Positions 5,475-31,429 of a stretch of 64,000 nt of DNA are shown in pieces. The translations under genes were made by a program, and so were the position numbers. Location of the stretch: positions 3,176-67,175 of the forward strand of contig DASPXM010000071.1 in NCBI GenBank assembly GCA_035637295.1. Reading direction: 5' to 3'. The DNA is from Verrucomicrobiia bacterium (GTDB lineage: Bacteria > Desulfobacterota > Binatia > UBA9968). Within the stretch, counting starts at the first letter, position 1; each line of letters opens with the position of its first letter. The notes under the pieces are model-generated. The model was not told the origin of the DNA. It worked only from the letters and a program-made list of their open reading frames with translations, and did no database searches.

Positions 5475-5653
5475 CGTCGTTCTCCATTTCGTTGTGTCAA
5501 ATGTTCCGTGTGTCTAACCGCGGAGGCGCAGAGAGCGCGCAGTTTGTGTCTTGCGTCTCGTGTCTAGAGTCTCGGGTTTCCAACTCGAGACCCAAGAACC
5601 AAGACTCAGGACTGCTTCTTTGCGAACTCCGTGTCTCTGTGGTGAATTCCAGA

Positions 5654-7135
5654 TCATATCGGATAGGTTGCGTATCCAAGCTTCCTCGCTTGGTACTTTC
5701 CTCTCGGTTTACTCACCATCTGATGCTTCTGTTCCTTCTCATTCCACTCTGAAGCAACCTCGCCGCGCAAGATAACCTGATACGGCCAGCCGGTGACCTC
5801 CCAACCTTCAAAAATGGACCAGCCGGCGGAGGTCAAGAGCATATTTTTATTGATCGTTTGTTTCTTTTTCAGGTCCACCAGCACGATGTCAGCATCGGCG
5901 CCCACTCGGAGCACGCCTTTCTTCGGAAAAAGACCAAAGGCTTTGGCGGGATTCTCGCAACAAAACTCGACGCAGCGCGGCAAAGTGATTCGTCCCTTAT
6001 TAACGCCTTCGCTCAGCATGACCGGAAGCATCGCTTCGACTCGCGAAGAAAATCCGCTGACGGTTTTCCATACGTCGCCTTTCACTTCCATCTCTTCTCT
6101 CGGCACGCCGTGGTTCACATGATCCGATCCGATGCAATCGACATCGCCATTGGCCACAGCCTTCCAGAGCCGATCCATCGTCTGCCGATCTCGCAGCGGG
6201 ACGTTGATCTTATAGGCATCGTGGTCGAGCGTCAGGTAGACAAAGCCGGTCTCACCGATGATTTTTACTCCTTCGTTGCGAGCGAGTTTGATCTCATCGA
6301 TGCTTTCCTGGGTCGTGGTGTGAACGATGTAGAGAGGGGATTTGGTGACCCGGGCGAGATAGGCGTACTGGCGCACGTGAATGGCTTCGACAAAGTGCGG
6401 ACAACGCTCATCCCATGCAGCGTTGTCCTTGCGCCCCTGTTTGATCAAACGCGCTTGAAGGACACGGATGATTTCCCAGTTTTCCGGATGAATACAGGTG
6501 ATACAGGGAGGACCCAATCGTCCGACGTGCTCCATTCCAATGTAGACGGTCCCGTCGTCGAACCCATACACGCCAATCTTTTTCTGCGGCTCCCACTGTC
6601 CTAAAGTCTCCTGTCCGCGCTTCAGATGAAGATAATATTTGTAGGAGGTCGCGCCATATTTCTCCGCCAGCAGCGGAATCTCTTCGACCTGCGCGTCGTT
6701 CGCGACAAGCGGGGTTAAAAAGTAATCCACCATCGAGTGCTCGTTGCCCATATCCTCGTACGCCGACATGACGTGACTGAAAGGCACGCTGTCCTGAATC
6801 TCTTTAACTGGTTTGAAGGTGCGGCTAATCGTGGGACTTGTGAGCATCATGCCCCAGGTAGTAACTCCCCCCGCGATGGCCGCCTTAGTTTCCGAGACGA
6901 AATCGTCTTGCAACGAACGGTGAACGCCGAGATGCGTCTCCGGGTCGACGACACCCGGCAAAACGTAATTTCCCTTCGCGTCGATTGTCTTTTTTGCCGG
7001 AAAGGCGCTCAAATCGGTTGCAATCGCAGCGATCTTCTCTCCCTTAATTCCGATGCTCGAAGATATGACATCCGGCGGGATAACCAGCTTTCCATTGTTG
7101 ATGACTAAATCAAATTCCATAGGTCCGCTGGCCAT
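5654..7135 (-). CDS. cyclic amidohydrolase, dihydropyrimidinase/hydantoinase family, paralog 2
   Basis: 493 aa. Same motif set (VVDPETHLGVHR, YKYYLH, GSDHVNHG, AFGLFPKKG). ATG at 7135 verified. Confidence 0.8.
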   Translation of the reverse strand: MASGPMEFDLVINNGKLVIPPDVISSSIGIKGEKIAAIATDLSAFPAKKTIDAKGNYVLPGVVDPETHLGVHRSLQDDFVSETKAAIAGGVTTWGMMLTSPTISRTFKPVKEIQDSVPFSHVMSAYEDMGNEHSMVDYFLTPLVANDAQVEEIPLLAEKYGATSYKYYLHLKRGQETLGQWEPQKKIGVYGFDDGTVYIGMEHVGRLGPPCITCIHPENWEIIRVLQARLIKQGRKDNAAWDERCPHFVEAIHVRQYAYLARVTKSPLYIVHTTTQESIDEIKLARNEGVKIIGETGFVYLTLDHDAYKINVPLRDRQTMDRLWKAVANGDVDCIGSDHVNHGVPREEMEVKGDVWKTVSGFSSRVEAMLPVMLSEGVNKGRITLPRCVEFCCENPAKAFGLFPKKGVLRVGADADIVLVDLKKKQTINKNMLLTSAGWSIFEGWEVTGWPYQVILRGEVASEWNEKEQKHQMVSKPRGKYQARKLGYATYPI

Positions 7136-7372
7136 AAGCTATTTTCCCTTTCTGAGATCTTGATTTTAGGTCGATGATGGTTGTTTGACTTCTTATGGAG
7201 CTACAACAGGGAACTGGTTCTTGTCAATTCAATCGAGTCGTGAAGAACCCAAGTATTAATCGCTGCGATGAAGTGGATATATGTGAACTAAACTATGTTG
7301 GCAGAAAAGGTGAGCTGTGATAGAGGAGCAACCCAGTGAAAAGCGCGACAATAATTTGAGGAAATAACTATT

Positions 7373-8845
7373 ATGGCTCTCGGTGAGATGGACCTCGTGA
7401 TCCAACATGGGCAGGTGGTGACCAGTAGTGGGGTGAACGAGCTGGCAATCGGTATCAAGGACGGGAGGATTGCCGCTTTAACTTCGGGAACCGAATCGGT
7501 CGAGGCGCGGCAAACTATTGATGCTGAGGGCAAATATGTCTTGCCCGGGATTGTGGACCCCGAAAATCACATGGGAACGCATCGTCCACTGAAAGACAGC
7601 TTAAATAGTGAGACGCAAGCTGCAGCCGCCGGCGGAGTAACTACCTGGGGAATGATGCAGGCGAGTCCCAAGCTCAGAAAAAAATATATCCATGAACCTG
7701 AACCGAGAGATGTTGTCCCGTTTTCAGAGGTCATGCCGGAGTTCATCGAGATCGTTGAATCGCATTCTTTTGTGGATATTTTTCTTACCGGCTTTATTAC
7801 AACTGATGAACAGGCACTCGACATTCCGAAAGTGGCCCGAGAATTCGGCGTCACGTCCTTTAAATATTATCTTCACATCATGCAGGGAGCACGGACTCAG
7901 GCTCAGTGGGCCGGGCGCGAGCGAGGCGGCTGGCTGGGCTTCGATGACGGAACGATTTATCTGGGGATGGAGAAAGCAGCCGAAATCGGACCTCCCGGAA
8001 TCATCTGCATCCACCCTGAGAACTATGAGATCGCCCGCATATTCGAGGATCGGCTCAAGCGGGCGGGACGGACGGACATGGCCGCTTGGGATGAGCGCTC
8101 ACCTCATTTTTGTGAAGCGGGACATGTGAGGACTTATGCTTATTACGCAGGCGTCACCGGCTGCCCGCTCTACGTCGTGCATACGACGACACAAGAATCC
8201 ATAGACGAGATCCTCAAAGCCAGAGCGGAAGGCGTTAAGATTTACAGTCAAACCGGCCACCATTATCTGACCTTGTCGCACGATGTGTGGAAGATCAACG
8301 TTCCGCTTCGCGATGAAGCGACGATGGCTCGACTGTGGGAAGCTTTGCGAGCGGGGCACATCGACTGCATCGGGACTGACCACGTCGATTGGGGAATGTC
8401 GCGCGATCAGATGGACAAGGGCAATGTCTGGGAAACCAGCAGCGGCTTCCCGTCGCGAGTGGAGGCGTATTTGCCGGTGATGCTGACCGAAGTTCACAAA
8501 GGAAAGATTTCTCTGGAAAAACTGGTCCAGGTGTGTTGTGAGAATCCCGCACGGATTTTCGGCCTCTACCCCAAAAAGGGAGCGATCGGCGTTGGCTCCG
8601 ATGCCGATTTGGTGATCGTCGATCTCGAGCGAACCGCGAAGGTGACACAGGACATGATCTACAGCTCCGCTGGCTGGTCAATCTGGGAAGGCAAAGAGCT
8701 TAAAGGCTGGCCGGTCATGACCATTCTTCGCGGAAGGGTCATCATGGAGTGGCCCGACGGCGCGCCGCACGCGATTATCATGAGTGAAAAGCCTGCCGGC
8801 CGCTATGTGCCGCGCAAACCCGGCCACCAGCTTTATCCGATCTAA
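7373..8845 (+). CDS. cyclic amidohydrolase, dihydropyrimidinase/hydantoinase family, paralog 3
   Basis: 490 aa. ATG at 7373 with GAGGAAA 9 nt upstream. Motifs IVDPENHMGTHR, FKYYLH, GTDHVDWG, IFGLYPKKG. Confidence 0.8.
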   Translation: MALGEMDLVIQHGQVVTSSGVNELAIGIKDGRIAALTSGTESVEARQTIDAEGKYVLPGIVDPENHMGTHRPLKDSLNSETQAAAAGGVTTWGMMQASPKLRKKYIHEPEPRDVVPFSEVMPEFIEIVESHSFVDIFLTGFITTDEQALDIPKVAREFGVTSFKYYLHIMQGARTQAQWAGRERGGWLGFDDGTIYLGMEKAAEIGPPGIICIHPENYEIARIFEDRLKRAGRTDMAAWDERSPHFCEAGHVRTYAYYAGVTGCPLYVVHTTTQESIDEILKARAEGVKIYSQTGHHYLTLSHDVWKINVPLRDEATMARLWEALRAGHIDCIGTDHVDWGMSRDQMDKGNVWETSSGFPSRVEAYLPVMLTEVHKGKISLEKLVQVCCENPARIFGLYPKKGAIGVGSDADLVIVDLERTAKVTQDMIYSSAGWSIWEGKELKGWPVMTILRGRVIMEWPDGAPHAIIMSEKPAGRYVPRKPGHQLYPI

Positions 8846-9912: not shown

Positions 9913-11186
9913 TTGTCCGTGGCCCTGACCGAATCAGATAAGCGTGTAATAGATCTGATCGACGAGAAGGAACTGGTCGATCTGGCCGTTGCAATGGGCA
10001 ATATCACGGCGCCGTCTGGCTACGAACAACCGATGGCGGACTTCGTACTCCGCTGGTTAACTGAAAACGGTTTTGAGAGATCATTCCAACAAGCGATCTG
10101 TGATGGCCGGTCGAACACGATCGGCATTCTCAACGGCCAAGGCGGAGGCCGAAACCTGATTTTTCAACAGTCACATGGACTCCGAACAAGGCATGCCGAT
10201 GCGTGTGGACGAACCACCGCCGCCGGGTCCCACGGCGCGTGTCGACTATGATAAGAAGCGCATCTTCGGTGTGGCGGTGCAAAACGATCGCGGCCCGATG
10301 GCGGCGTTTATGATCGCCACCAAGGCGCTCAAGAATAGCGGCGTTCGGCTGGCCGGCGACGTTATCATGACCATGGTCGTAGGTGAGATCGGCATGGGCC
10401 CAGTGGATGAATTCCGTGGCGCCAAATATATCGGCAAAGGGTTCGGCAGCCGCCACGCGGTGACCCACGGCGTCAACGGCGATTTTGCTTTGATTGCCGA
10501 GACCACCGACTTTGGCGTCACTTGGATAGAAGCCGGCGCGGCGTACTTTAAAATCACGTTGGAAGGGCGGAGTTTCTACACGCCGCGCATCCCGCCGCGC
10601 GGCGCCGTTGAAGACAATCCCAACGCGCTGATCAAAATGATTCCCGTGATCGAAGCGATCGAGAAATGGGCAGTGGAGTACGAGCACAAATATACAATCG
10701 ATTACCCGGTAGGGAAGATGGTCCCGAAAGTGAGCATTGGTGCGATCCGTGCCGGCGCGCCCTATAAGCCGAGCACGACGCCTCGCAGTTGCAGTATTTA
10801 CGTAGACGTGCGCGTGCCGCCGCCGGTGCCGTTCTCGCAAGTGGAAAGGGAATTAAAGCGAGTCGTCAGCGCGGTGGGACTGGGTGGAAGCGTCGAGTGT
10901 TTCATGGCGCGCAAAGGCTACGAAGGCAAAAATGTCGAACCGTTGGTCGATGCGATTTGCCGCCGCCCATGTGGCGGTGCGAGGTAGCCAGCCGCCACCG
11001 GTAGATACGCCGGAAACCAGTATGTGGCGTGATATCAACATTTTCAATGAAGTCGGCATCCCCGCTGCAACTTTCGGCATGCCGCGCAAGAGCGCGCCCG
11101 ATGTGCCCGAACGGTTTATCGAGATTCAGGACATTGTCGATGCGGCGAAGATGTACGCGCTGGTCGCGCTCAAGATCTGTGGCTGA
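9913..11186 (+). pseudogene. M20-family metallopeptidase/deacylase (ArgE/DapE-like) disrupted by two frameshifts
   Basis: One M20 protein is split across three track ORFs (9913-10251, 10175-10987, 10884-11186). The first shift is at the T5 run 10161-10165 (LIF|NSHMD motif lost). The second is near 10961-10975. Confidence 0.5.
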
Positions 11187-11214
11187 CCGTCGTTTACCGC
11201 AAGGTTTCAAATTT

Positions 11215-13320
11215 ATGAAATACGTTGTGGGCGTGGATATCGGCGGCACCTTTACCGATTGCGTGGTGGTGGACGAAGCCGGGCGGATCACCGTCGGCAA
11301 AGCGCTTTCGACCCCCGACGATTTTTCCCGCGGCGCAGTCAACTCGGCGGCCGATGCCGCGAGCAACCTCGGCCTTTTGAATGCCAGTGAATTGCTCAAA
11401 CGCTCGCGCCTGTTTTTTCATGCCTGCACCATCGGCGATAACACGTTGATCACTCGCACCGGCGCCAGGACCGGCTTGATCATGACCAAAGGATTCGGCG
11501 ACAGCCTGCACATCATGCGCGGCAAGGTCGCTGAAGGGTTGACGGAAAACGAAACCGCGCACCGTGCCGCGCTTTATAAGCCCGAGCCGTTTGTGCCGCG
11601 CAAATTGGTCGAAGAAGTGCCGGAGCGGATCGATTACAAAGGCCAGGAGCTGATCCGCCTCGATGTCGGCGTGGCGGAAAGGGCGATCGACCGGCTCGTC
11701 GCCAATGGCGCAGAATCGATTGCCGTGTGCTTTCTCTGGTCGATCGTGAACGATGCCCATGAAAAGCACATGGCCGAGATTCTAAAGAAGAAAAACCCCA
11801 ACCTGTTCCACACGCTGTCGAGCGAAGTCGCGCCTTACATCGGCGAATACGAACGTTCGGCGACCACGGTTTTCAACGCCTATATCGGGCCGAAGATTTC
11901 CACCTACCTGCAAAACCTGCAAAGCGTCCTGAAAGACCAGGGCCTGCAGCGTGAGCCCTTGATCATGCAGGCCTACGGCGGCGTATTGGGCATCGACGCG
12001 ACCTGCAAGAACGCCGTCGGCGTGATCGAGTCGGGGCCCGCCGCCGGCATCGTCGGTACGCGTTTTTTAGGCGAGCATATCGGCGAGAAAAATATTCTTG
12101 CCACGGATATGGGCGGTACGACTTTCAAAGTCAGCCTGGTGCGCCATGGCGTGATCGAACGCGACTACAAACCGGTCATTCTGCGCTACAACATTCTCTC
12201 GACCAAGATCTGGGTTGAATCCATCGGCGCCGGCGGCGGCAGCATCGCCTGGATCGATCCGGAGACGGGCCTGCTCAAAGTCGGACCGCAGGGAGCCGGG
12301 GCAGCGCCGGGACCGGTCTGCTACGACGTCGGCGGCAACGAACCGACGGTCTCCGATGCCGATCTGGTGCTCGGTTATTTGAACGAGAATTATTTTCTCG
12401 GCGGCCGGATGAAGCTCAACAAAGCCAAGACGCTGGCCGCCATCCGCGAAAAAATCGCCAAGCCTCTCAAGATGACCGAAGTGGAGGCCGCGAGCGGCAT
12501 CTATCGCATCGCCAATTCGCATATGAGCGATCTGATTCGGAAAGCGACCGTGGAGAAAGGGCATGATCCGCGAAATTTCGTGCTCTTCGCCTTCGGCGGC
12601 GCTGCCCCGGTGCACGCCAGCCGCTATGCCGCGGAGCTGGGCGTGCGCCAGGTGGTGATTCCGCTCACCGCCTCCGTGCATGGCGCCACCGGTCTGATTA
12701 GTTCCGACGTAGTCTATGAGTACGGCAAGTCGGAGCATCTGCTCCTGCCGGTTGAGCCGGCGAGAGTCAACCAGATTTTCAGCGAATTGCTCGAACGCGC
12801 ATACAAGGACCTGGCGGCGGCGGGTTTCGCACCGAACGAGATTCACGTCATGCGCAGCGTGGACATGCGCTATCGCTATCAGATTCATGAGTTGAACGTT
12901 CCGTTCTCTCCTGGTCTAGACAGCATCTCCGACGCGGACATGGCCGCGTCGTCCGATCTCTTTGACGAGATGTACGAAAAAGCTTTCGGCCAGGGCTCGG
13001 GGTACCGCGAAGCCGGCAAAGAAATTCTCACGTTGCGGCTTACAGCTATGGGGTTGCTCAAGAAACCGGACATCAAGGCTGAAACGGTTGCCCCGAGGGA
13101 CGGCAGTGTCGCGCTCAAGGGTGAGCGTCAAGTCTACTTCGAGGAGAACCGCAGTTTCACTGCGACGCGCGTCTACGATTTCAACCAACTACGGCCGGGA
13201 GCTGAATTCGCCGGCCCGGCGATTATCGAAACTCCAGTGACCACTGTGGTTGTAAATCCCCACGACCGAGCGGCCATGGATGGCTACCGCAACATCAGAA
13301 TTTACGTCGGAGGAGCATGA
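11215..13320 (+). CDS. hyuA: hydantoinase/oxoprolinase family protein, A subunit (HyuA-like, ATP-dependent)
   Basis: ATG at 11215. Typical N-terminus MKYVVGVDIGGTFTDCVVVDE. About 700 aa. Stop overlaps the start of the B subunit. Confidence 0.8.
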   Translation: MKYVVGVDIGGTFTDCVVVDEAGRITVGKALSTPDDFSRGAVNSAADAASNLGLLNASELLKRSRLFFHACTIGDNTLITRTGARTGLIMTKGFGDSLHIMRGKVAEGLTENETAHRAALYKPEPFVPRKLVEEVPERIDYKGQELIRLDVGVAERAIDRLVANGAESIAVCFLWSIVNDAHEKHMAEILKKKNPNLFHTLSSEVAPYIGEYERSATTVFNAYIGPKISTYLQNLQSVLKDQGLQREPLIMQAYGGVLGIDATCKNAVGVIESGPAAGIVGTRFLGEHIGEKNILATDMGGTTFKVSLVRHGVIERDYKPVILRYNILSTKIWVESIGAGGGSIAWIDPETGLLKVGPQGAGAAPGPVCYDVGGNEPTVSDADLVLGYLNENYFLGGRMKLNKAKTLAAIREKIAKPLKMTEVEAASGIYRIANSHMSDLIRKATVEKGHDPRNFVLFAFGGAAPVHASRYAAELGVRQVVIPLTASVHGATGLISSDVVYEYGKSEHLLLPVEPARVNQIFSELLERAYKDLAAAGFAPNEIHVMRSVDMRYRYQIHELNVPFSPGLDSISDADMAASSDLFDEMYEKAFGQGSGYREAGKEILTLRLTAMGLLKKPDIKAETVAPRDGSVALKGERQVYFEENRSFTATRVYDFNQLRPGAEFAGPAIIETPVTTVVVNPHDRAAMDGYRNIRIYVGGA

Positions 13321-15152
13321 GGGTGACGTCAAATCCCATTGTGACGAGCGTCGATCCAATTACTTTCGAGATTCTCTCGCATCGCGTCTACCAGATCGCC
13401 AAGGAGATGGGCACGACCCTGGAACGCGTCGGCGGCACGGTGAACACGACGCAGATGCACGATTACATGGCTGCGCTTTATCTGGCTAACGGCGACGTGC
13501 TCTGCGCCGGCGATGCCATGGGTTGGCATGTGGCCTGCGCCGGAGTCGCGGTCAAGCGCATCATCGAGCGCTTCGAGAAGGACGGGGGTATCCACCCCGA
13601 CGATATTTTTCTCCTCAACGATCCTTACGTAGCGGCGATCCATCAGTCGGATGTCTACGTGGTGTCGCCGATTCATTTCAAAGGCAAACTGATGGGATGG
13701 AGCGCAACCTTTGTCCACGTGATGGATATCGGCGCTATGTCCCCTGGCGGCAATTCGCCCAACGCCACCGAGATCTGCCACGAAGGGATTCGCATTCCCG
13801 GCATCAAGCTGGTCGAACGGGGCGAACTGCGCAAGGATTTATTCGATGCGTTTATCAACATGACGCGGCAGCCGGTGATGGTCGGGCTCGATCTCAAATG
13901 CGAGATCGCGGCGAATAACGTGGCGAAATCGCGAATTCAGGCTTTATACGAGCAATTCGGCTCTGAGTTGGTCGCCGCCGTCTCACAGGAGATGTTGCAT
14001 TATTCCGAAGCGATCTTAAGAAAGAGAATCGGTGAGATCCCCGACGGCGAGTGGCGCGAGACGGGTAGTATCCATGCGGGCGACACCTGGAAGGTCGATG
14101 TCGCGCTCAAGAAAACCGGAGATCGTTTGCTGTTTGACTTCACCGGCAGCAGCCCCCAGGCGAAAAAGGGGATCAACTTACCGTACCATGCGACGTTCGG
14201 TGCGTGTTACGAGGCGATTCTCTCGACGATGGCGTACGACCTTCCGAAAAATCACGGCGCCCTCAGACCCATCGAAGTGATCGCGCTCCCCGGGACGGTG
14301 GTCAACTGCACAGCGCCGGCGCCTGTTTCGCTCAACACCACCTCCGCCGGGTCGACGGCGAAGTTCGTCGCCAATTCGGTCATCATCCAGATGCTCGCCA
14401 CCAGTGAAAAGTGGCGCGGCGAACTCATGGCGCTCAACGTCGGCCATCGGCTGGCACGCCACGCCGGCGTCAATCAATATGGCAACTATTATGTGTCGAC
14501 ACTTTCCGAAGGCGCCCTCGACGGCACCGGCGCGCGCTCCGACAGAGACGGTGATGATACCGGCGATGGCCTGAGCTCGCACAATATCGAATGGGTCGAG
14601 GCGAACTTCCCTCTGCTTTATTTGTTCCGACGCAACACCCGCGGGGGCGGCGGCGCCGGCAAATTCCGCGGCGGCGCCGGCAGCGAATCTGCGCTCACTG
14701 TGCATGATGCGCCGCAAGGTAAAATTAGGGGCGTAGCGCTCGGTGTGGCCGGCTTGCGAAATTCCGGGCAAGGGTTATTCGGCGGCTATCCCGGCGCGCC
14801 GAGCCTGCTGACGCTTATCCAGGGCGCCCGCGTCGAAGAAACCATTGCCGCAGATCAGGCGCCGGACGAACTCGCCGCGCTCGGCGGCGACAGCAGACTG
14901 TTGCCGTACTGTGAGTTTGATCTCGGCCGCAACGATATTCTTTACATGCGTATGGCGAGCGGCGGCGGCTACGGCGATCCCCTCGAACGTGAACCGCAGC
15001 AGGTCTTGCGCGACGTCGATGAGGGCGTCGTGTCGCGCGAAGAAGCGCGGGCGATCTACGGCGTGGAGATCGATGGCGATGAGCCGAGGCTGAATCAAAC
15101 GGCGACGGATAAACTGCGGTCCGACCTGTTGAAGCAGCGGTTGCAGGAGTAA
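13317..15152 (+). CDS. hyuB: hydantoinase B/oxoprolinase family protein (HyuB-like)
   Basis: 611 aa. N-terminus VDPITFEILSHRVYQIAKEMG is typical of HyuB / acetone-carboxylase alpha-like proteins. 4-nt overlap with hyuA. Confidence 0.8.
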   Translation: MRVTSNPIVTSVDPITFEILSHRVYQIAKEMGTTLERVGGTVNTTQMHDYMAALYLANGDVLCAGDAMGWHVACAGVAVKRIIERFEKDGGIHPDDIFLLNDPYVAAIHQSDVYVVSPIHFKGKLMGWSATFVHVMDIGAMSPGGNSPNATEICHEGIRIPGIKLVERGELRKDLFDAFINMTRQPVMVGLDLKCEIAANNVAKSRIQALYEQFGSELVAAVSQEMLHYSEAILRKRIGEIPDGEWRETGSIHAGDTWKVDVALKKTGDRLLFDFTGSSPQAKKGINLPYHATFGACYEAILSTMAYDLPKNHGALRPIEVIALPGTVVNCTAPAPVSLNTTSAGSTAKFVANSVIIQMLATSEKWRGELMALNVGHRLARHAGVNQYGNYYVSTLSEGALDGTGARSDRDGDDTGDGLSSHNIEWVEANFPLLYLFRRNTRGGGGAGKFRGGAGSESALTVHDAPQGKIRGVALGVAGLRNSGQGLFGGYPGAPSLLTLIQGARVEETIAADQAPDELAALGGDSRLLPYCEFDLGRNDILYMRMASGGGYGDPLEREPQQVLRDVDEGVVSREEARAIYGVEIDGDEPRLNQTATDKLRSDLLKQRLQE

Positions 15153-15197
15153 CCATGAAAGTCTCGCGGTCCGCGAATGTTGGACCTGAATTGAGTG

Positions 15198-15839
15198 TTA
15201 CCTTCTGTTCCGATAAGCGAGCCGGGCGCGAGTCATGCGCTCGCGGAGGCCGCCGTCCTTGACGAAGTCTCTTTCCAAACGGCGTAGTTGCTGATCAATC
15301 AGATAATTGGTTTGGTGAATAAGGCAAATAGCGATATTCGCGATCACCTCTGGTGGGCGAGTTTCTGGCGATAATGTTCGTAAGTCTGTGGCGTTTGGCG
15401 GCCGAGCTGGCGGACGTATCGTGCCTCCTTGGAATCTTTGTCCCAAATCTCCAGGTCGCGAGCGCGGAGGTAATCTTTGTAGTCGTCCAATAATTCTTCC
15501 AGGCTAGCGCGGGCGACGTTGTAAGCTTGATCTCGGTTTCCTTCGAAGTGAGAGCTGCTTTGCTGCCTTCCAGAATGTTCTTCTTGCCGGAGCGGGCGGA
15601 CTGAATCATCTGGTCCACAGTACGGTCGCCTTTGGCGAGGAACTTGTGCACAAAACGGAAAGTAATGTCATAAACGATCTCGGCTTTCTGAAATGAGAGC
15701 AGGGTCTGATAATCACCGCGCGGCTGAAGTAGTCGGTCAGCATTCTGGGAGTTATGAGAATTATGGGAAGAATGGGAAGTATGCTTCCTATAACTCCCAT
15801 CATTCCCATTCTTCCCATTACTCTTATCCTTTTTCATTG
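15198..15839 (-). pseudogene. four-helix-bundle (suffix-domain) protein gene with two frameshifts
   Basis: ATG at 15839 (MKKDKSNG...). Family-like sequence continues through three frames (QKAEIVYDITFRFVHKFLAKGDRTVDQMIQSARSGKKNILEGS | NVARASLEELLDDYKDYLRARDLEIWDKDSKEA | ETRPPEVIANIAICLIHQTNYL...RERMTRARL). Shifts are near 15517-15523 and 15355-15368. N-terminus has a low-complexity NGKNGNDG stretch. Confidence 0.45.
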
Positions 15840-15851
15840 CAGAGATGTCCC

Positions 15852-17291
15852 TTACAGCACCGGATTTCTTTTGTGCCACTCGGTCGCGCCTTCGTAGGCT
15901 GCCGCCACTTGAAAGACGACGTCTTCGCGAAACGGCGGCGCGACGATCTGCATACCGATAGGCAAACCGCCGGACGAAAAGCCGCAGCAAATGCTCATAT
16001 CCGGAAGTCCCGTGACGTTGAAGGGAATCGTGTAGCGGGTCAGAAAATTTCCGGCGCGGTCCTGCAAGTTGATGCGCTTGCCGTCGGCTTCGATATAGCC
16101 GCGGTTGCAATCGTCGATGGTCGGCGCCGGGCTGAAGATAGTCGGCGCGACGATGATCTGCACGGATTTGAAAGCTTCGTCGAACTCCTGACAGATCAAA
16201 CGACGCACCCTCTGAGCTTGAACGTACACGGGTGCGGGAGTCAAAAGCCCGGCAATCAAGCTGTAGAGAAGGCCCGGGCTGTAGTCTCTTGGCCGCGTGC
16301 GGAGATAGTGGTCATGGTCGGAATTCGCTTCCGGGCGCGTGCTCGCCGCTTGCGCCGCGGGGACCAGATCGATATGCGGTATTTCGATCTCCTGAGTTCT
16401 CATGCCGAGTGATTTTAGAGTGTTCATAGCTTTGTCGACTGTTCGGCGCACTTCACTGACGATGCCCTGTTCGAAGTATCCTTTGATCAGACCGATCTTC
16501 ATACCTTTGACCGGAGCACCGAGGGCTTTGGTGTAGTTCACAGTCGGCGCGTCGGAGCTGAGGGGGTCCTTCGGGTCATAGCCGGCAGTATGGTTCAACA
16601 GCAGCGCGCAATCTCTGACGCTGCGCGTGAGTATGCCGAAGTGATTGACGGTATAGCCGCCGGTGCCCGCAACGCCGCCGTAGGTACTGATTCTGCCGAA
16701 CGTCGGCTTGAGCCCGACGGTTCCGCACAACGATGCCGGATTGCGCACTGAGCCTGCGCTGTCGGTGCCGATGGATCCCAGGCATAGGCTCGCGGCCACG
16801 GCGACGGCCGAACCGCTGCTCGATCCACCGGGTATTCGCGTGGTATCCCAGGGATTCAACGGCGTGCCGTAAAACGGGTTGATGCTGTTACTCCCCTTGG
16901 CCCATTCGTGCATGTTGGTTTTGCCAAGAATAATGGCGCCGGCCGCTTTGAGCCTTTCGATCACCGTGGCGTCATGATCCGGCACCCAATCCGCCAGGAT
17001 TTTCGATCCCGCGGTGGTGATCACACCTTTGGTCGCGATGTTGTCCTTGATCGAAAGGGGAATGCCATGGAGCGGCCCGCGATATTTCCCCTGGCGAATT
17101 TCCTTCTCGGCTTTCCTGGCGGCGGCAAGGGCGCCGTCCTCGGCCATCGCGAGGTAGACGTTGAGTTTGGGATTGAGCTTGCCGATTCTTTCGAGATAAC
17201 TTTTGGTGATTTCCAGCGGCGAGATTTGCTTTTTCTTGAGTAGCGGGCCAAGCGCGCTGATCGTCAAGCCTTCGAGATCGAGAGTCTTCAT
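15852..17291 (-). CDS. amidase-signature enzyme, GatA/AtzE-like
   Basis: 479 aa from the ATG at 17289-17291 (the 649-aa track ORF carries a spurious N-extension). GIPLSIKDNIATKG ... GGSSSGSAVAVAA signature. Start overlaps the stop of the upstream small gene by 4 nt. Confidence 0.8.
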   Translation of the reverse strand: MKTLDLEGLTISALGPLLKKKQISPLEITKSYLERIGKLNPKLNVYLAMAEDGALAAARKAEKEIRQGKYRGPLHGIPLSIKDNIATKGVITTAGSKILADWVPDHDATVIERLKAAGAIILGKTNMHEWAKGSNSINPFYGTPLNPWDTTRIPGGSSSGSAVAVAASLCLGSIGTDSAGSVRNPASLCGTVGLKPTFGRISTYGGVAGTGGYTVNHFGILTRSVRDCALLLNHTAGYDPKDPLSSDAPTVNYTKALGAPVKGMKIGLIKGYFEQGIVSEVRRTVDKAMNTLKSLGMRTQEIEIPHIDLVPAAQAASTRPEANSDHDHYLRTRPRDYSPGLLYSLIAGLLTPAPVYVQAQRVRRLICQEFDEAFKSVQIIVAPTIFSPAPTIDDCNRGYIEADGKRINLQDRAGNFLTRYTIPFNVTGLPDMSICCGFSSGGLPIGMQIVAPPFREDVVFQVAAAYEGATEWHKRNPVL

Positions 17292-17491
17292 TTTTTGCCT
17301 TTCTTGGCCGCGGGAATTTTTCGCACCCGCTTGTCGATCATGGTAAGCGGCGTGATGCCGTCGACATTCACTTCGAACAACGGCTTGAACAAGAGCGCTG
17401 CTTCTTCGGCCTGCTGCGCCACGAGGTCGATTTCCTTGTCGGTAAGCTTGAATTGGTATTCGTCGTTGAGTCGTCTTACTGTGTCTTGCAT
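17288..17491 (-). CDS. GatC-like small protein (AtzG-like partner of the amidase)
   Basis: 67 aa. LTDKEIDLVAQQAEEAALLFKPLFEVNVDGITP resembles the Glu-tRNA amidotransferase C-subunit fold. Translationally coupled (ATGA overlap) to the amidase. No gatB in the window. Confidence 0.55.
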   Translation of the reverse strand: MQDTVRRLNDEYQFKLTDKEIDLVAQQAEEAALLFKPLFEVNVDGITPLTMIDKRVRKIPAAKKGKK

Positions 17492-17724
17492 AGTTTTGAC
17501 CTACTTTCCGGTTGAGAGTTGTGGTTCTACAATCGCGTTGTTGGTTTCTACAATCGGGTGTCCGAGCTGTCAACGACCCGGTGCTGCCTGGTTCGTTCTG
17601 ACAACCGCCTTGACGTCGAGAGAATCGATGCGATAGGAAGGTGATGCTTTGGCGTTGAGGTTTTGAACCGGTCGATAACCGCAGAGCAACAACCGCTTGC
17701 AACAATGCAGGAAACGCGACAGCG

Positions 17725-18696
17725 ATGTTTCGAGTCATTCTTCCCACGCTCTCATTTCTGGTGATTCTAATCCTGCCGCGCATCGGCCATGGCCAAGCCA
17801 TCAGGATCAGTTACGCCGGCACCTCCGGTTACAACGTTCCCATCTGGGTGACCCACGAGGCGGGCCTGTTCAAGAAGCATGGTTTGAACAGCGAACTGAT
17901 CATGATCTCCGGCGCGGCGCAGAGCATGCAGGCGATGCTCGCCAATGAAACTCAAGTGGCCAACACGTCGGGTTCAGCGCCGATCAATGCAAAGCTCAAA
18001 GGCGCCGATGCGGTCATCGTCGCCAGCTCCTATGATCTGATTCCCTATGGCATCGTGGTTCATAAAGACATCCGTATGCCGGCGGACCTCAAGGGAAAGA
18101 GGATCGCGATATCGCGCTTCGGCGGCATTACCGAGCTGAGTGTGAAATTGGCCGTCGAGAAATTCGGCTTGAACGAAAAGGACGTGACGATGATCCAGGC
18201 CGGCGCCGACGCGCAGCGGATTCCTGCGGTGGCCACAGGCGCAGTCGCCGCTTCGGTGCTCGCGCCGCCGGGACTTTTCGCGGCTAGCGCGCAAGGGCTC
18301 CGGGTGCTCGCTGACTTGAGCGATCTGGGCGCTAAATATCCGACTTCGGTATTCTTCGTCATGCGTTCCTATCTGACGCAGCAGCGCGTGGCGCTAAAAA
18401 GGTTTCTCTTGGCCTTGATCGAAGGGCTGCATGTCTATGTCAACGACAAGGATTTTTCCATGCGCGTGATGCAGAAGTACACCAAGCTAGGTGATCCTGA
18501 GATCGTCGCGAAGACGCAAGATTATTACTCTAAGAAGACCCTTGTGGTGCCGTTTACAGACGCGGCGGCGATCAAGAATGCCTTGCCTGCGGATGCCGGC
18601 GCGGGGCGTAAGCCGGAAGAGTTTTACGATAATTCGCTCATCCAGGAAATCGTCAAAGACGGATTCGTCGAGCAGCTCAAGAAAAACATGCGCTAG
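17725..18696 (+). CDS. periplasmic NMT1/THI5-like ABC substrate-binding protein, paralog 3
   Basis: ATG at 17725. Signal peptide MFRVILPTLSFLVILILPRIGHGQA. 13 nt upstream of amidohydrolase paralog 4. Confidence 0.7.
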   Translation: MFRVILPTLSFLVILILPRIGHGQAIRISYAGTSGYNVPIWVTHEAGLFKKHGLNSELIMISGAAQSMQAMLANETQVANTSGSAPINAKLKGADAVIVASSYDLIPYGIVVHKDIRMPADLKGKRIAISRFGGITELSVKLAVEKFGLNEKDVTMIQAGADAQRIPAVATGAVAASVLAPPGLFAASAQGLRVLADLSDLGAKYPTSVFFVMRSYLTQQRVALKRFLLALIEGLHVYVNDKDFSMRVMQKYTKLGDPEIVAKTQDYYSKKTLVVPFTDAAAIKNALPADAGAGRKPEEFYDNSLIQEIVKDGFVEQLKKNMR

Positions 18697-18708
18697 CGAG
18701 GAGAGGTC

Positions 18709-20160
18709 ATGAACCAGGTCGACGTGCTTCTAAAGAATGGCAAAATTGTCACCCAGGGCAAGGTGATCGAGGGCTTCGTCGCGGTGGACGGTGAAAAAAT
18801 CGTCACCGTCGGACAGGGCGATCACGCGCCTGACGCGCGCAAGGCCATCGATCTCAAAGGTCGAGTATTGATTCCCGGTGTGGTCGATCCCGAATGCCAT
18901 TTTGGCAGCCACCGTTGGGTTGGCGATGAGTTCGACTCGGAAACCCGCGGCGCTGTCGCCTACGGCATCACCACCTGGGGGTTCATGCAGCCGAGCGCCA
19001 ACATGGGACAACCGTACAAAGCTGAAAAGACCGCGGAGGAAGTACCGCTTTACGCCGAAGTGTTCGATCTGTTCAAAAATATGGGCGAAGAGCGCTCGAT
19101 GGTTGATTTCATCTTGACGCCGAAAATTTTGAAGGACGAACATGCTTTGGAAATTCCCCGGCTGGCGCGCGATTACGGCATCACTTCGTTCAAGTATCAA
19201 CTGCATCTGATGCATCCGGAGCGCACGGCGACTTACTGGCCGCAAAGCAAAAGTCAGGGCTATTTCGGTTACGACGACGGCACGATCTATCTCGGCATGG
19301 AAGCAGTCGCCAAACTGGGTCCGCCGGCGATTGTCTGCATGCACTGCGAGAACTGGGAGATCGCCCGAATCTTCGAGGAACGCCTGCTCAAAGCCGGCCG
19401 CAAAGAATACAAAGTCTGGAATGAGCGCTCGCCGCATTTTTGCGAAGCCGGCCATGTCCATGCTTACACGTACTACGCGCGCATCCTAAAATGCCCGCTC
19501 TATATCCAGCACACCACCACCCCTGAAACCATCGAAGAGATCACGCGCGCCAAAGGGGACGGTGCCACTGTGTACGCGCAGACCGGTCCGCACTATCTCA
19601 GCCTCACCGAAGACGCGTGGCGCATCAACGTACCGCTGCGCAGCGCCGAAACGATCGAAGTCCTCTGGCAGGCGCTCGCTGATGGCCGTATCGATACGGT
19701 CGGCAGCGACCACACCAACACCGGCAGATCGCGGAAAGAGATGGAAGTGCCCGGCGATATCTTTGCCACCCGGACCGGGTTTTCTTCCCGCGGCGAGGCG
19801 GCCTTGCCCGTGATGCTGAGTGACGGAGTGAACCGCGGAAGGATTTCACTGGTTCGAATGGTTCAGGTCTGCTGTGAAAACACGGCGCGAATTTTTGGAC
19901 TTTATCCGAAAAAGGGTGTGATCGCGCCGGGCTCCGACGCCGACCTCGTGGTCGTGGACCTCGATCGCACCGTCACCGTGACCAACGATATGGTTCATAC
20001 GTCGGCCGGCTGGACACTTTGGGAAGGCAGACAAATGAAAGGCTGGCCGATCATGACCATGCTGCGCGGAAAAATCATCGCCGAGTGGCCCGAAGGCGGC
20101 AAGAGACCGGAAATCGTCTCGAAACCGTTTGGCCGCTACCAGCCGCGTTCGCTAGGGTAA
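18709..20160 (+). CDS. cyclic amidohydrolase, dihydropyrimidinase/hydantoinase family, paralog 4
   Basis: 483 aa. ATG at 18709 with GAGGAGAGG upstream. Motifs VVDPECHFGSHR, FKYQLH, GSDHTNTG, IFGLYPKKG. Confidence 0.8.
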   Translation: MNQVDVLLKNGKIVTQGKVIEGFVAVDGEKIVTVGQGDHAPDARKAIDLKGRVLIPGVVDPECHFGSHRWVGDEFDSETRGAVAYGITTWGFMQPSANMGQPYKAEKTAEEVPLYAEVFDLFKNMGEERSMVDFILTPKILKDEHALEIPRLARDYGITSFKYQLHLMHPERTATYWPQSKSQGYFGYDDGTIYLGMEAVAKLGPPAIVCMHCENWEIARIFEERLLKAGRKEYKVWNERSPHFCEAGHVHAYTYYARILKCPLYIQHTTTPETIEEITRAKGDGATVYAQTGPHYLSLTEDAWRINVPLRSAETIEVLWQALADGRIDTVGSDHTNTGRSRKEMEVPGDIFATRTGFSSRGEAALPVMLSDGVNRGRISLVRMVQVCCENTARIFGLYPKKGVIAPGSDADLVVVDLDRTVTVTNDMVHTSAGWTLWEGRQMKGWPIMTMLRGKIIAEWPEGGKRPEIVSKPFGRYQPRSLG

Positions 20161-20182
20161 GACTGATTTAACAAATCTTCCG

Positions 20183-21538
20183 ATGAAGACTCTCCTCGAA
20201 CACGCGACCGTCGTCACGATGAATGCCCGCAAGGAGATTTTCTACGACGCGCATGTGCTGATTGAGGACAGTCGGATCGCGAGTGTCGGAGGTGTGAACT
20301 CTGGCGAAGCCGATCAGGTGATCGATTGCCGCGGTAAAATTATCATTCCCGGTCTTGTCAGCGCTCACTCTCATCTCACCGGACTCCTTCAACGAGGGTT
20401 ATGGGATGAGAACAGTTTCGAGTCCTGGTCGCAAAAGTCTACGGCAACAGAGAAGTTATTCCACGCTTCTGCGGAAGATATCTCCATGCTCCACTGCGCG
20501 GCTTGTGTGGAGTTTATCAGGCACGGCGTGACGACGGTACTCAACATGTTTACCGTTCCGTCGGGCGTTCCGCTGGAATTTATCGATGCTTCCTGTCGCG
20601 CGCTCCGGGATAGCGGCATCAGGGGCATTCTCGCGCTTTCTGTCAAAGACCAATCGCCAGACAATCAGGCTATTGTTCTCGATCCGATTCATGCCGAATC
20701 CTGGGTTTTTCAAGCCAAGGAAGCAGCCGCGCATGTCAGGGAGTTTGGGTCACGAATCTCCTTTATGCTGGCGCCGTCGGCACCTCAACGGTGCAGCGAC
20801 AATCTCTTAATCCAATGTAAAGTTCTGGCGGAAAATCTCGGCGTAGGTATTCACACACATCTTGCCGAAACCAAGTCTCACGCCGAAGTTGCAAGAAATC
20901 TCTACAGGGAGCCGATGGTAAAGCATTTGGAGAAGATCGGCTTTCTTGGACCTCATCTCTCTGTGGCTCACGCGATATGGCTGGATGAAGAAGAGATTGA
21001 TATCCTGAGTCGCCATTGGGTCAATGTTGTTCATAATCCATCGAGCAACATGAGGCTCGGCAGTGGAGTTGCCAAAGTTAAAAAGATGCTCGACCGAGGC
21101 ATTACCGTTGGACTGGGAGCAGACAGTGTCAATGCGGGCACTGTTTACTCAATCTTCGAGCAAATAAAGCTTGCGATATTGCTGCCGAGGGCCGTGTGGG
21201 AACCGAAAGACTGGATTTCGTCTGACGAGGCGTTTCAAATGGGATGCCTGGGCGGCGCTAAAGCAATGTTTCTAGAGAACGAAATCGGGTCGATTGAAGC
21301 CGGAAAGAAAGCAGACCTCGTGGTGCTGAAACCTTCAACCAGCCTTTTGCCTCTAAATAATCTCACAGCCCAGATTGCATTATCCGAAAGCGGTGAGTCA
21401 GTCGAGACCGTTTTCATCGATGGAGCGCCGATTTTGCTTAACGGGCGGGTCACGAAGGTCGATGAAGACGCTCTTCTCAAAGCGCTTTCATCCCTGGGAC
21501 CTAGAATCTCAGCTGCGGTAAATACTTCGTTCCATTGA
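20183..21538 (+). CDS. TRZ/ATZ-family amidohydrolase (chlorohydrolase/aminohydrolase, SsnA/guanine-deaminase-like)
   Basis: 451 aa. HxH motif [10 protein letters not shown]. Later [14 protein letters not shown] and DLVVL motifs are typical of TRZ/ATZ deaminases. Confidence 0.75.
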
Positions 21539-24313: not shown

Positions 24314-25715
24314 TTATGTGGTTAAATTCGGCGCGATCGTTAACGAAATCAATTCGCTGACCTGCTCGACTTCATCCAACCGACGCAAGCACACCAGGAG
24401 ATCGTCAATCTGCTTCGGTGGAAGCAGCGGCTCTGCCAGCGGACGAAATTTACGCTCCTGTTCCTCGTCAGTCATGAACCGTTTGAAATGGCCAAGGTGG
24501 TAGGCCACTTTGGTCGAGAGAACCTTTCCTGACTTCATCTCGACATCCACAATGTTCAAAGGAACTTCCGGCCATGCAACGACGGGTTCGTCGCCGATCC
24601 GTATTTTGATTTTCTGCATGAGCGCACGCACAGCGGGCCGTTTGTAGTACACTTCGTCGTAATGGCGAATCTCCAGGTTGCCTTCCATAAGCGCAACGGC
24701 CATCACAAAGGGAAGACTGTGATCGGCGCTCTCTCTTGTTTCCGGCTGCCAATTCGCTTCTCCTGAGCCCATGACCTCGTAGCCGGCGGGAAAAGTCTGC
24801 AGGCGAATCTCTTTAATCTCATCGAGATCGGAGATTTCGGAGCGCAAGTTAAGAATGGCCTCTATCGCGTTTTGGGAAAAATAGCCTGAGGGAAATGCTT
24901 TCAACCGTGCTTTCATGATGCGATACGTCTCGGTGGAGTTCGCGAATGACGCGATCTCGAAGCGGATCCCTGTGCTACTCAGAAATCCCGCTTTACCTTC
25001 GAACGCTTCCTCCGGCCCTGTCATCCCTTTCGCAGCTAGCATGGCGCAAAACACGGCGTTCCTCGATGCGTTCGCTAACGCGCATCCCTTCCAATGGGAA
25101 ATCTGACCTCTTCTGATTTGCTCAAGACTGATATGAGACGATACCGCCAAGCTGATCGCGTTAGCCATCTGTTCTTTCGTATGGCCGAAACAGTTTGGAC
25201 GCCACGACAGCGGCTGCGATGACTCCGTAGGTCGACTGATCCCAACTGCGGCTGGGCTCTTTCGATCCGGCGTCGATGAGCCCACAAAACACCTCATAAC
25301 CCAAAACCATTCCGAGGATTACGTCTTTGCCGTTGCCGTGTCTGGCGTCGACGACGGCGAACACCGGAGCAAGTAGATCGCTTGGGTGGCAGGTGGGCGA
25401 GCCGGCATACGTGTCATTGAAATCGAGATAGCGGATCATCACACCATTGGCGAAGGCGGCGAGGTCGGGGGAGGTTTTCTGGCCGCTGATCAAAACGGTG
25501 GACGGATTGGCCGAAGTTATCTCAGATGCGGCGGCTCTAGCGATGCTGGCTGGAGGATTTTCGGCGCCGCCGACCGCGCAGCCGACGGTATCGATCACAA
25601 TGTGCTTGGTCCGGCGTATCACTTCCTCCGGCAGATCGCGATACGACAACTTCAACGCATAGGCGCAAAGATGATTAATGACTCGGTCGGGCATCTTTAC
25701 TGAGTCAACCTTCAC
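24314..25715 (-). pseudogene. MmgE/PrpD-family (2-methylcitrate-dehydratase-like) gene with one frameshift
   Basis: N-terminal 184-aa ORF (25161-25715) and C-terminal 327-aa ORF (24314-25297) belong to one PrpD-family protein. Junction ...AAVVASKLF|GHTKEQMANAISLAVS is shifted at the TTT run near 25183-25193. Confidence 0.5.
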
Positions 25716-27084: not shown

Positions 27085-28563
27085 CTATTCGGCTAGAAAA
27101 CGTACGGGCAGTCCTTTTGCGGCCAGAGCCTTTTTGTAGAGTTCGTCAGTGATTTTGTGAGAACGGTCGGGAATTTTTTTGATGCGACTGTAGAGGCGGT
27201 GCATTTTCTTGCTGATCGGCTCCACTCTCCGTACCAGATTTTCTTCGTCAATGCGCGTGAGGCGCCCGCCCGCGACAACGATCCTGCCGGCGACGATAAC
27301 CGTGTGAACAGACTGACCGCCTTCACAGAAGACGAGTTGGTGGACGACATCTCTCAATGGGCGAAGCCGGAGGGTCGGCTTAAGCAGAATCAAATCGGCA
27401 CTGTACCCTGGCTTGATCTGGCCGATTTTACCTCGCCATGCGGGAACAGCCTGCGCGCCGTTAACCGTTCCCATCTTTAGCGCGTCAGCCGCAGTGATCC
27501 AGTTTTCCGGATCTTCCGCGACGACGCGTGATAAATACGCAGCCAATCTCATCTGCTCAAAAATAGAATAACTGTCACTGGTATCTCCGCCGTCGGTACC
27601 CAGAGCCACGTTGACGCCGCGGGATTTCAATTTGGCAACAGGGGCGATGCCGCTCCCGAGCTTCAAATTGCTCGCCGGATTGTGAACGGCGCTGGTGCCG
27701 GATGAAGCCATGAGATCGATATCTCTGTCATCCAACCAGATGCTATGGGCGCCTGAGACCCGAGAAGAAAGAAATCCGATTCCGGCTAGGTGAGCACAAA
27801 TCGTTCTCCCGTAAAGTTTTTGAGCCGTCCACGCCTGCAATCGCGTCTCTAGAAGATGCGTGTGGATGCCCAAATCATACTGTTCGGCGATCTTTACTAC
27901 CTCGCGGAGTAGCCCGTCGCTGCAGTTCATCGGCGATGAAGGTCCCAGCATGATCCCGGAACGACTGTCTCCCCGAGGCAAACGCGCGAGAACCGTAAGC
28001 ACTTCATCCTTCCAGGGCTCGGGCGACGTTTGTGCAGCCTTGTTTCTTCGGTTGCTTGATTGCGTTGCCAAGCGGATTGAATCCTGATCGCGTAGCGAGG
28101 GAACCAGCATGCCTCGAATCCCGGTTTTCTCAAACGCGCCGAGAATCGCCTCCATTTTTTTGACCGTCAGTCCGGGGCGCGTGGAAAAATGATCCACGAC
28201 CGCCGTCACTCCGTTTTTAAGCATCTCCGAACACGCGAGCTCTGCCGCCGTGCCGATTTCCTCCGCTGTCAACTTGGCCATATCTTCTGTGGCCGTTCTG
28301 TAGGTGCGCCAGATTTCCATCCGCGCATTGTCGCGAAAGCTTTTTTGCAAAATCTCCGTCAGATGACAGTGAGCGTTTATCAAGCCCGGCATGACGATCA
28401 TTCCCGAGCAGTCGATTCGCTTTGTGATCGGAGTTCCTCTTGTGTGAATTTTCCTTCCCATCTGAGCAATCGTTTCGCCATCGATGAGAATCTGCTGCGT
28501 TTCGAGAACCGGCTTCGAGCTGTTCAAAGTGATAACAGTCGCATTTTCAAGGAGGATTGCCAT
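27085..28563 (-). CDS. TRZ/ATZ-family amidohydrolase (aminohydrolase/deaminase-like) with C-terminal extension
   Basis: 492 aa. MPGLINAHCHL HxH motif. HTHLLET, ALGTDG and ADLILLKP motifs. ATG at 28563. Confidence 0.75.
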   Translation of the reverse strand: MAILLENATVITLNSSKPVLETQQILIDGETIAQMGRKIHTRGTPITKRIDCSGMIVMPGLINAHCHLTEILQKSFRDNARMEIWRTYRTATEDMAKLTAEEIGTAAELACSEMLKNGVTAVVDHFSTRPGLTVKKMEAILGAFEKTGIRGMLVPSLRDQDSIRLATQSSNRRNKAAQTSPEPWKDEVLTVLARLPRGDSRSGIMLGPSSPMNCSDGLLREVVKIAEQYDLGIHTHLLETRLQAWTAQKLYGRTICAHLAGIGFLSSRVSGAHSIWLDDRDIDLMASSGTSAVHNPASNLKLGSGIAPVAKLKSRGVNVALGTDGGDTSDSYSIFEQMRLAAYLSRVVAEDPENWITAADALKMGTVNGAQAVPAWRGKIGQIKPGYSADLILLKPTLRLRPLRDVVHQLVFCEGGQSVHTVIVAGRIVVAGGRLTRIDEENLVRRVEPISKKMHRLYSRIKKIPDRSHKITDELYKKALAAKGLPVRFLAE

Positions 28564-31113: not shown

Positions 31114-31429
31114 CTTTTGCTCCTTCGATAAGGATAAAAATTTTCCCATCTTCTACAGCGACCGCGTATCGCTCGATTTTGTATCCCGTACAATTCAATC
31201 CTTCTCCAGTTTCGAGATCGAAGGTAAAGGCGTGTTGGCCGCAGCGAATCATCTTGTTCCAAACATTGCCCTTTTCCAAAGGCGCTCCCTCGTGAGGGCA
31301 CCGTCTTTGAATGGCGTAGATCACTCCGGAGCAGCGCAGAACCAACACGTCTTTCCCGTCGGGCAGCTTAGCAGTCAAATAACCTTCCTCGTCAAGTTCG
31401 GAGCGCTGTCCAACGAAAATATTTTCCAT
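31106..31429 (-). CDS. Rieske [2Fe-2S] ferredoxin-like small protein
   Basis: CPHEGAPL...(17)...CGQHAF Rieske CXH-CXXH motif. ATG at 31427-31429; the track start is TTG at 31456. 8-nt overlap with the UbiD gene. Confidence 0.6.
   Translation of the reverse strand: MENIFVGQRSELDEEGYLTAKLPDGKDVLVLRCSGVIYAIQRRCPHEGAPLEKGNVWNKMIRCGQHAFTFDLETGEGLNCTGYKIERYAVAVEDGKIFILIEGAKDA

Follow-up and report, generated by a model that had tools for sequence, protein, structure and literature searches.

To our knowledge, only one case has been studied in which a "vestigial" GatCA complex became a catabolic enzyme, that of AtzE and AtzG. Their complex constitutes the 1-carboxybiuret hydrolase of Pseudomonas sp. 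ADP (pADP-1), and HpxX/HpxY-type atzG-atzE-atzH clusters are related to it; in the described clusters atzG-atzE is accompanied by AtzH (PMC6219798). AtzE has been found to be insoluble without AtzG (PMC6219798), and the stability of GatA requires GatC and GatF (PMC4027206). Within GatCAB, residues R64 and D66 of GatC touch S19 and N52 of GatB (PMC4027206), and Tyr309, Arg358, and Asp425 of Staphylococcus aureus GatA have been described as glutamine-binding/substrate residues (bioRxiv 10.1101/733030). Precedents for amidase-signature enzymes that act on ureido or carbamoyl groups are allophanate hydrolase and AguY, an N-carbamoylputrescine amidohydrolase (PMC12283126). Here we describe a pair of genes in a 64-kb stretch of DNA from an uncultured Binatia bacterium (the window; all features are given in its coordinates): one for a GatC-like protein of 67 amino acids (aa) and, directly downstream, one for an amidase-signature enzyme of 479 aa.

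The two gene products most likely form one GatCA-derived, two-subunit catabolic hydrolase (we put the probability of such a complex at about 0.6). The pair is like AtzEG in that a non-catalytic partner of about 68 aa is encoded immediately upstream of a GatA-derived amidase, without GatB and in a setting of nitrogen-compound catabolism (PMC6219798). A first-pass annotation of this DNA had proposed that the pair mirrors AtzE/AtzG. That likeness was borne out for the design (a 67-aa GatC-derived partner, coupling, no GatB among the scanned ORFs, and a catabolic setting) and for three indels, but not for family membership. The pair is best described as a further form of "vestigial GatCA amidase", an idea that is itself already known. 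What distinguishes it is a new small-subunit family still recognisable as GatC, a new amidase clade, and a multi-copy occurrence restricted to Candidatus Binatia.

Gene pair, junction, and upstream region

The features of the pair are as follows.

17288..17491, minus strand: gene for the small GatC-like protein, 67 aa (ATG at 17491, TGA at 17290-17288)
15852..17291, minus strand: gene for the amidase-signature enzyme, 479 aa (ATG at 17291-17289, end at 15852)
17288..17291, minus strand: ATGA start/stop overlap of the small gene and the amidase gene, read directly from the sequence
17545..17573, minus strand: promoter-like element upstream of the small gene, TTGACA (17573..17568), a 17-nt spacer, and TAGAAA (17550..17545), read directly

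The start codon of the amidase and the stop codon of the small gene overlap in the minus-strand sequence ATGA at 17291-17288, as the first-pass annotation had reported; the two genes are predicted to be translationally coupled. A mechanical list of open reading frames (ORFs) gives the amidase frame 649 aa, with its upper end at 17801. Two observations favour the start that yields 479 aa. More than 100 homologues have a length of 479-480 aa, and the junction recurs in relatives: 33 of the 40 small ORFs in the related loci that were fetched form an NTGA junction with the start of an amidase. Pairing persists at the edge of the family, where a distant pair (L090) has kept the 4-nt overlap, its small protein being 42% and its amidase 56% identical to those of the window.

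The element TTGACA-N17-TAGAAA was not reported by a consensus scan. Ten orthologous loci were read for it. TTGACAG followed by a (T/A)TAGAAAC-like sequence occupies the same place in seven (L001, L003, L005, L010, L012, L013, and L014), a variant, GTACAAAC, is found in L022, and the element was not seen in L015 and L016. The sequence suggests a promoter-like element, and its conservation just upstream suggests that the small gene and the amidase are transcribed as a unit of their own. Two copies of the 11-mer CGATTGTAGAA (minus-strand reading), a sequence that contains the -10-like TAGAA, are found at 17525-17556, 21 nt apart; the orthologous loci have one copy. The doubling may reflect a tandem duplication or an operator.

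Relationship to GatA, GatC, AtzE, and AtzG

The enzyme matched the Pfam family Amidase (PF01425) with an E-value of 2.7e-118 (396 bits, cut-off 27). The curated cut-offs of more specific NCBIfam models were not reached: gatA (TIGR00132) gave 356 bits against 481.1, and the AtzE models, which were the second and third best NCBIfam matches, gave 334.7 bits against 461 (NF006631) and 331.5 bits against 425.75 (TIGR02715). Scores for allophanate hydrolase were far lower (217 and 197 bits). The closest solved relatives, with the highest pairwise scores, are GatA chains (4wj3_A, 310 bits, about 40% identity), and AtzE scored 217 bits at 34% identity. The first-pass annotation had framed the phylogeny as a choice between a GatA and an AtzE clade; a neighbor-joining tree, crude and with few references, placed the amidase clade outside both. 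An AlphaFold model of the amidase alone, built with 37 close homologues, had a predicted local distance difference test score (pLDDT) of 42.5, which is too low for a fold comparison.

The amidase was aligned with three GatA sequences, AtzE of pADP-1, and about 100 clade members. The amidase shares the amidase-signature fold and the catalytic triad with GatA: K82/S157/S181 correspond to K79/S154/S178 of S. aureus GatA and are invariant in 102 clade sequences. The columns of GatA Y309/R358/D425, by contrast with those of GatA, hold Gln/Ser/Thr, and the segment around Tyr309 is absent. Three indels are common to the amidase and AtzE and separate both from GatA. The window amidase and AtzE both lack the GatA-specific inserts SSNLSRFDGxRYG and SAGYYDAYY, and a 12-residue insert is common to the two (IEADGKRINLQDRAGNFL in the window amidase, IEVNGTRHPCRPAMG in AtzE). 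Unlike AtzE, which keeps Arg at the R358 position, the window amidase has Ser there. This column differs among sub-clades (S, N, T, R, or Q), which suggests different substrates. By these comparisons the enzyme is placed on the GatA/AtzE-like branch, in a Binatia-specific clade that is neither GatA nor AtzE.

Close homologues of the small ORF number 156; most have 67 aa, and almost all fall within 64-72 aa. Between orthologues, the ratio of nonsynonymous to synonymous substitution rates (dN/dS) is about 0.10, although dS is close to saturation. The ORF is a genuine, conserved gene under purifying selection. When 1.84 billion representative proteins were searched with a profile, just 54 clusters matched the family, mostly of 45-80 aa with a few longer ones (to 253 aa), none of them a normal-length GatC. 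It is a narrow family for which Pfam has no entry.

The kinship of the small protein with GatC surfaced only once the family was widened. Alone, the window protein matched Pfam GatC below threshold (E 0.069, 13.8 bits, cut-off 23) and NCBIfam gatC (TIGR00135) with 14.2 bits against a cut-off of 47.1; sequence searches of the PDB with the protein and with the profile of its close family gave no match to GatC or AtzG. The widened family comprised 30 sequences, 28-84% identical to the window protein, and was compared by hhalign with five solved GatC sequences from the PDB. The probability was 94.7% (E 6e-8), and residues 2-51 of the small protein aligned with residues 6-55 of S. aureus GatC. Pfam GatC was matched at E<=1 by 18 of the 30 members, the best at 1.8e-4. 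An AlphaFold2 model of the small protein (pLDDT 84.5) consisted of helices at 2-12 and 18-40 followed by a Lys/Arg-rich tail. The top five Foldseek matches of this model in the PDB were all GatC chains, with template modeling (TM) scores of 0.57-0.62 and, for four of the five, a root mean square deviation of 2.5-3.0 A over 52 columns. When a GatC hidden Markov model (HMM) was run against the 12,077 ORFs of the related loci, it matched these small ORFs alone.

The order of the genes, small subunit before amidase, is also that of GatCAB. Unlike GatC, the small protein has two thirds of the length (67 vs about 95 aa). The positions of R64 and D66 fall past the region of GatC that aligned; the small protein would therefore be an N-terminal GatC half without the GatB-contact segment, and profile and model comparison indicate remote homology to GatC that is confined to this N-terminal half. 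In the window protein, this part is followed by a basic, Lys-rich tail.

The small protein resembles GatC, and no similarity to AtzG could be detected. None of the 30 family members matched Pfam AtzG-like (PF13318) at E<=1, a model that AtzG itself passes (36.2 bits, cut-off 24). The hhalign comparison of the family with the single AtzG sequence showed no similarity, and that with a 16-member AtzG family profile gave a probability of 0.7%. AtzG compared with GatC in the same way also gave nothing at this depth, so the comparison does not decide whether AtzG and the small family share an ancestor that postdates GatC.

Pairing, paralogy, and the proposed complex

Relatives of the amidase in reference genomes belong almost entirely to metagenome-assembled genomes of Candidatus Binatia or carry older "Deltaproteobacteria" labels. 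Complete Binatia chromosomes hold at least three loci each (e.g., OZ243984.1, OY762897.2, and OY729432.1). In the fetched loci, the small ORF lies directly upstream in 38 of 97 amidase ORFs, about 90 of which belong to this clade, and it was never found away from a clade amidase, L017 excepted, where one ORF stands between. Distances among small proteins and among amidases correlate (Mantel r 0.83, reached by 0 of 2000 permutations), and one genome holds two diverged pairs in which the small proteins are 41% and the amidases 60% identical. The small gene and the amidase therefore duplicate as a unit.

Some loci are arranged differently. L016 (664-4284) has the order small ORF, amidase, 157-aa ORF, and second amidase, and L017 (7265-9443) the order small ORF, 157-aa ORF, and amidase; the small gene thus does not always adjoin its presumed partner. 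In one sub-clade that has no small ORF, the clade amidase is preceded on its own strand by a second, different amidase-signature gene (about 458 aa, about 38% identical). It usually lies 1-3 kb away, but abuts the clade amidase in L051 and is about 4 kb off in L047. The loci concerned are L023, L027, L028, L030, L033, L037, L039, L040, L042, L043, L045-L048, L050, L051, and L075.

In the hydrolase that we propose, the amidase would be the catalyst, using the Ser-cisSer-Lys mechanism of the amidase-signature family, and the half-GatC protein would be a non-catalytic, stoichiometric scaffold, produced in step with the amidase via the ATGA overlap. By analogy with GatC for GatA and AtzG for AtzE, it would be needed for folding or solubility of the amidase; the two-helix part that it retains would be the portion of GatC outside the cited contacts with GatB. 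The substrate would probably be a small nitrogen compound with a terminal carboxamide or ureido group, from which the enzyme would release ammonia and which neighbouring binding proteins, cyclic amidohydrolases, or a hydantoinase A/B-type enzyme would probably take up or ring-open. N-carboxy or ureido ring-opening products, the substrate class put forward in the first-pass annotation, are plausible from the gene context. The pair would not be part of tRNA transamidation, because no GatB partner was found among the scanned ORFs and the glutamine-binding residues of GatA are replaced.

Several observations weigh against this proposal. No small ORF lies within 8 kb of about 60% of the clade amidases, which fall into four sub-clades, and a search of these loci for concealed small ORFs (HMM; tblastn at E<=1) gave chance-level matches only; the amidase fold can therefore not be strictly dependent on the partner. 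Linkage alone can yield a Mantel correlation. The Pfam GatC and Foldseek scores of the small protein are each below significance, and the case for GatC kinship is their agreement with hhalign. Finally, the window amidase and the neighbouring hydantoinase A/B genes are convergent and not co-transcribed.

The partner-less sub-clades are also the main reason to consider that the amidase acts alone and that the small ORF encodes a regulator or a chaperone for something else, or is a mere coupling device. This would leave room for the unexplained basic C-terminal tail, and the association of the two proteins is deduced from sequence. We nevertheless consider it unlikely, since the retained region is the very part of GatC outside the GatB contacts, the small ORF keeps to clade amidases in the fetched loci, and the pair co-diverges with the small ORF under purifying selection. 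The same catalytic family includes stand-alone GatA-like hydrolases such as allophanate hydrolase and AguY (PMC12283126); unlike the amidase of the pair, these are not known to have a GatC-like partner.

Far less probable is that the pair is an orthologue of AtzE/AtzG (or HpxY/HpxX) acting on 1-carboxybiuret or oxalurate-type substrates. Its architecture, the size of its small subunit (AtzG has 68 aa), the three indels, and the rank of the AtzE models would agree with this. The AtzE scores nevertheless remain below the cut-offs (335 and 332 bits vs 461 and 426), the identity is 34%, the tree places the amidase outside AtzE, and the small protein matches neither the AtzG-like family nor the AtzG profile. 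No AtzD, AtzG, or AtzH homologue was matched by tblastn in the window or in 88 related loci (about 1.3 Mb). Unlike atzG-atzE, the pair has no AtzH (AtzH/DUF3225) gene nearby, and its gene neighbourhood is different. All sequence-based assignments tried, to AtzE, AtzG, and the atzGEH cluster as well as to GatCAB, appear to leave the pair outside.

The two-subunit hydrolase may also be seen in a wider evolutionary frame, to which we give slightly less than even odds. The half-GatC family of Binatia would be a domestication of GatC-GatA that is either separate from AtzG/AtzE or much more conservative. Pairs would have duplicated as a unit into cognate two-subunit amidases with diversified pockets for the catabolism of nitrogen heterocycles and amides, and some lineages would later have shed the partner.

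Gene neighbourhood and significance

The genes flanking the pair are listed below.

11029-13320, plus strand: hydantoinase/oxoprolinase-family A gene (Pfam), convergent with the amidase
13317-15152, plus strand: hydantoinase/oxoprolinase-family B gene (Pfam), convergent with the amidase
17725-18696, plus strand: NMT1/SsuA-type solute-binding protein, first of a divergent row at 17725..21538
18709-20160, plus strand: dihydropyrimidinase/hydantoinase-like cyclic amidohydrolase, divergent row
20183-21538, plus strand: TRZ/ATZ-type amidohydrolase, divergent row

The Pfam scan of the window covered almost every ORF of 200 aa or more and several shorter ones; each of the others of that size shares DNA with a gene that has an assignment, in a different frame or on the opposite strand, and incomplete ORFs at the two ends of the window lay outside the scan. 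The first-pass annotation had described an island of ring-opening amidohydrolases, and such an island is indeed present: four dihydropyrimidinase/hydantoinase/allantoinase-like enzymes of about 483-493 aa, two TRZ/ATZ-type amidohydrolases, and one hydantoinase A/B pair. Two of the four cyclic amidohydrolases were scanned with NCBIfam, and the other two were assigned by Pfam and by similarity to these. The four are paralogous (4008-8845 and 18709-20160) and score below curated cut-offs where tested. Each adjoins a gene for an NMT1/SsuA-type binding protein; genes for an ABC permease or ATPase were not noticed in the vicinity. A 492-aa ORF at 27085-28563 is a TRZ/ATZ-type amidohydrolase and not one of the four.

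The best NCBIfam match of the hydantoinase A/B genes was caprolactamase alpha (569 bits, cut-off 1000). Orthologues of the pair, and several of its divergent paralogues, are flanked by such genes in the same convergent arrangement. A second small/amidase pair, directly upstream of hyuA-hyuB and on their strand, is present in L002 and L004. L005 and L006 have genes for a paralogous cyclic amidohydrolase and a binding protein upstream of the pair and co-directional with it. We infer a functional link of the pair with the hydantoinase A/B genes or the divergent row. No intrinsic terminator was found between the convergent genes by consensus scan.

This recurrence could also mean that the pair generates ammonia as a module docked on another enzyme, e.g., the ATP-dependent hydantoinase A/B-type enzyme, which would take the place of GatB. 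Descent from an ammonia-channelling complex would fit such a role, and docking could be the purpose of the basic tail, which is otherwise unexplained. However, the residues for glutamine binding have been lost, the genes are convergent in the window, and a hydantoinase A/B gene is missing from the 8 kb around many pairs; we hold this to be very improbable.

No GatB domain was found among the scanned ORFs of the window, in keeping with the first-pass annotation, none was noticed in the related loci, and canonical gatCAB was not found in the fetched loci. Public records label the proteins "amidase", "GatA", "GatC", or "hypothetical protein", the labels GatA and GatC being those of JGI and older NCBI records. 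That the pair is a genuine GatC-GatA serving Glu-tRNA(Gln)/Asp-tRNA(Asn) transamidation with a gatB elsewhere is very improbable: gatB may be unlinked from gatCA in bacteria, GatA chains are the best PDB matches, the small protein resembles GatC, and the labels agree, but the gatA and gatC cut-offs are not reached, the glutamine-binding residues and GatA inserts are gone, the GatB-binding half of GatC is missing, the setting is catabolic, and the chromosomes carry at least three paralogous copies, many without the small ORF, where a housekeeping gene would be expected in about a single copy. The view in the first-pass annotation that this is not a normal GatCA is thus upheld.

Other features of the region were observed. 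Between the stops of hyuB and the amidase, at 15198-15818 on the minus strand, lies a twice-frameshifted gene. Joined by hand from three frames, it matched the four helix bundle suffix domain-containing protein TIGR04258 with 85 bits (cut-off 40), and also TIGR02436; a long inverted DNA repeat (about 15745-15830) is found at its 5' end. In L003 (11665-11925) and L005 (11708-11977), an ORF of 86-89 aa with the pattern CxxC...CxxC overlaps the end of hyuB and matches the Pfam acetone carboxylase gamma subunit (E 6e-5). No trace of this ORF was found by tblastn in the window, and the four-helix-bundle pseudogene is in its place (15153-15850); the window HyuAB may therefore be without a third subunit. 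The M20-family ORF at 10175-10987 has only 270 aa, and the syntenic gene of L005 (16019-17278), an ArgE/DapE-type deacylase, has 419 aa; the window copy may be truncated or frameshifted. An MmgE/PrpD-like ORF (24314-25297) covers the C-terminal part of the family profile only, from about position 163 of the N-terminal domain, and may be a truncated gene or have a mis-called start. The N and C domains of a thiamine-diphosphate enzyme occur as separate short ORFs at 31646-32748 (168 and 199 aa) beside a UbiD-family decarboxylase (29683-31149), and a lone C-domain ORF of 208 aa is found at 2140-2766. The dcw cell-division cluster lies in the right half of the window. GC content is even throughout (53-58%), so the region is not compositionally foreign; it is ordinary chromosome.

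The Binatia clade would be a second lineage, besides AtzEG, in which a GatCA complex has become a catabolic enzyme, and one whose small subunit is still recognisable as GatC. Because the partner is kept in some paralogues and lost in others, the clade would offer a natural series on why GatA-type amidases need a scaffold. The GatA and GatC labels given by public pipelines would wrongly imply extra transamidosomes in Binatia, a systematic mis-annotation that is corrected here. Taken with the cyclic amidohydrolases, hydantoinase A/B enzymes, and binding proteins, the expansion of the pairs suggests a capacity for broad scavenging of organic nitrogen in this uncultured phylum of soils and sediments.

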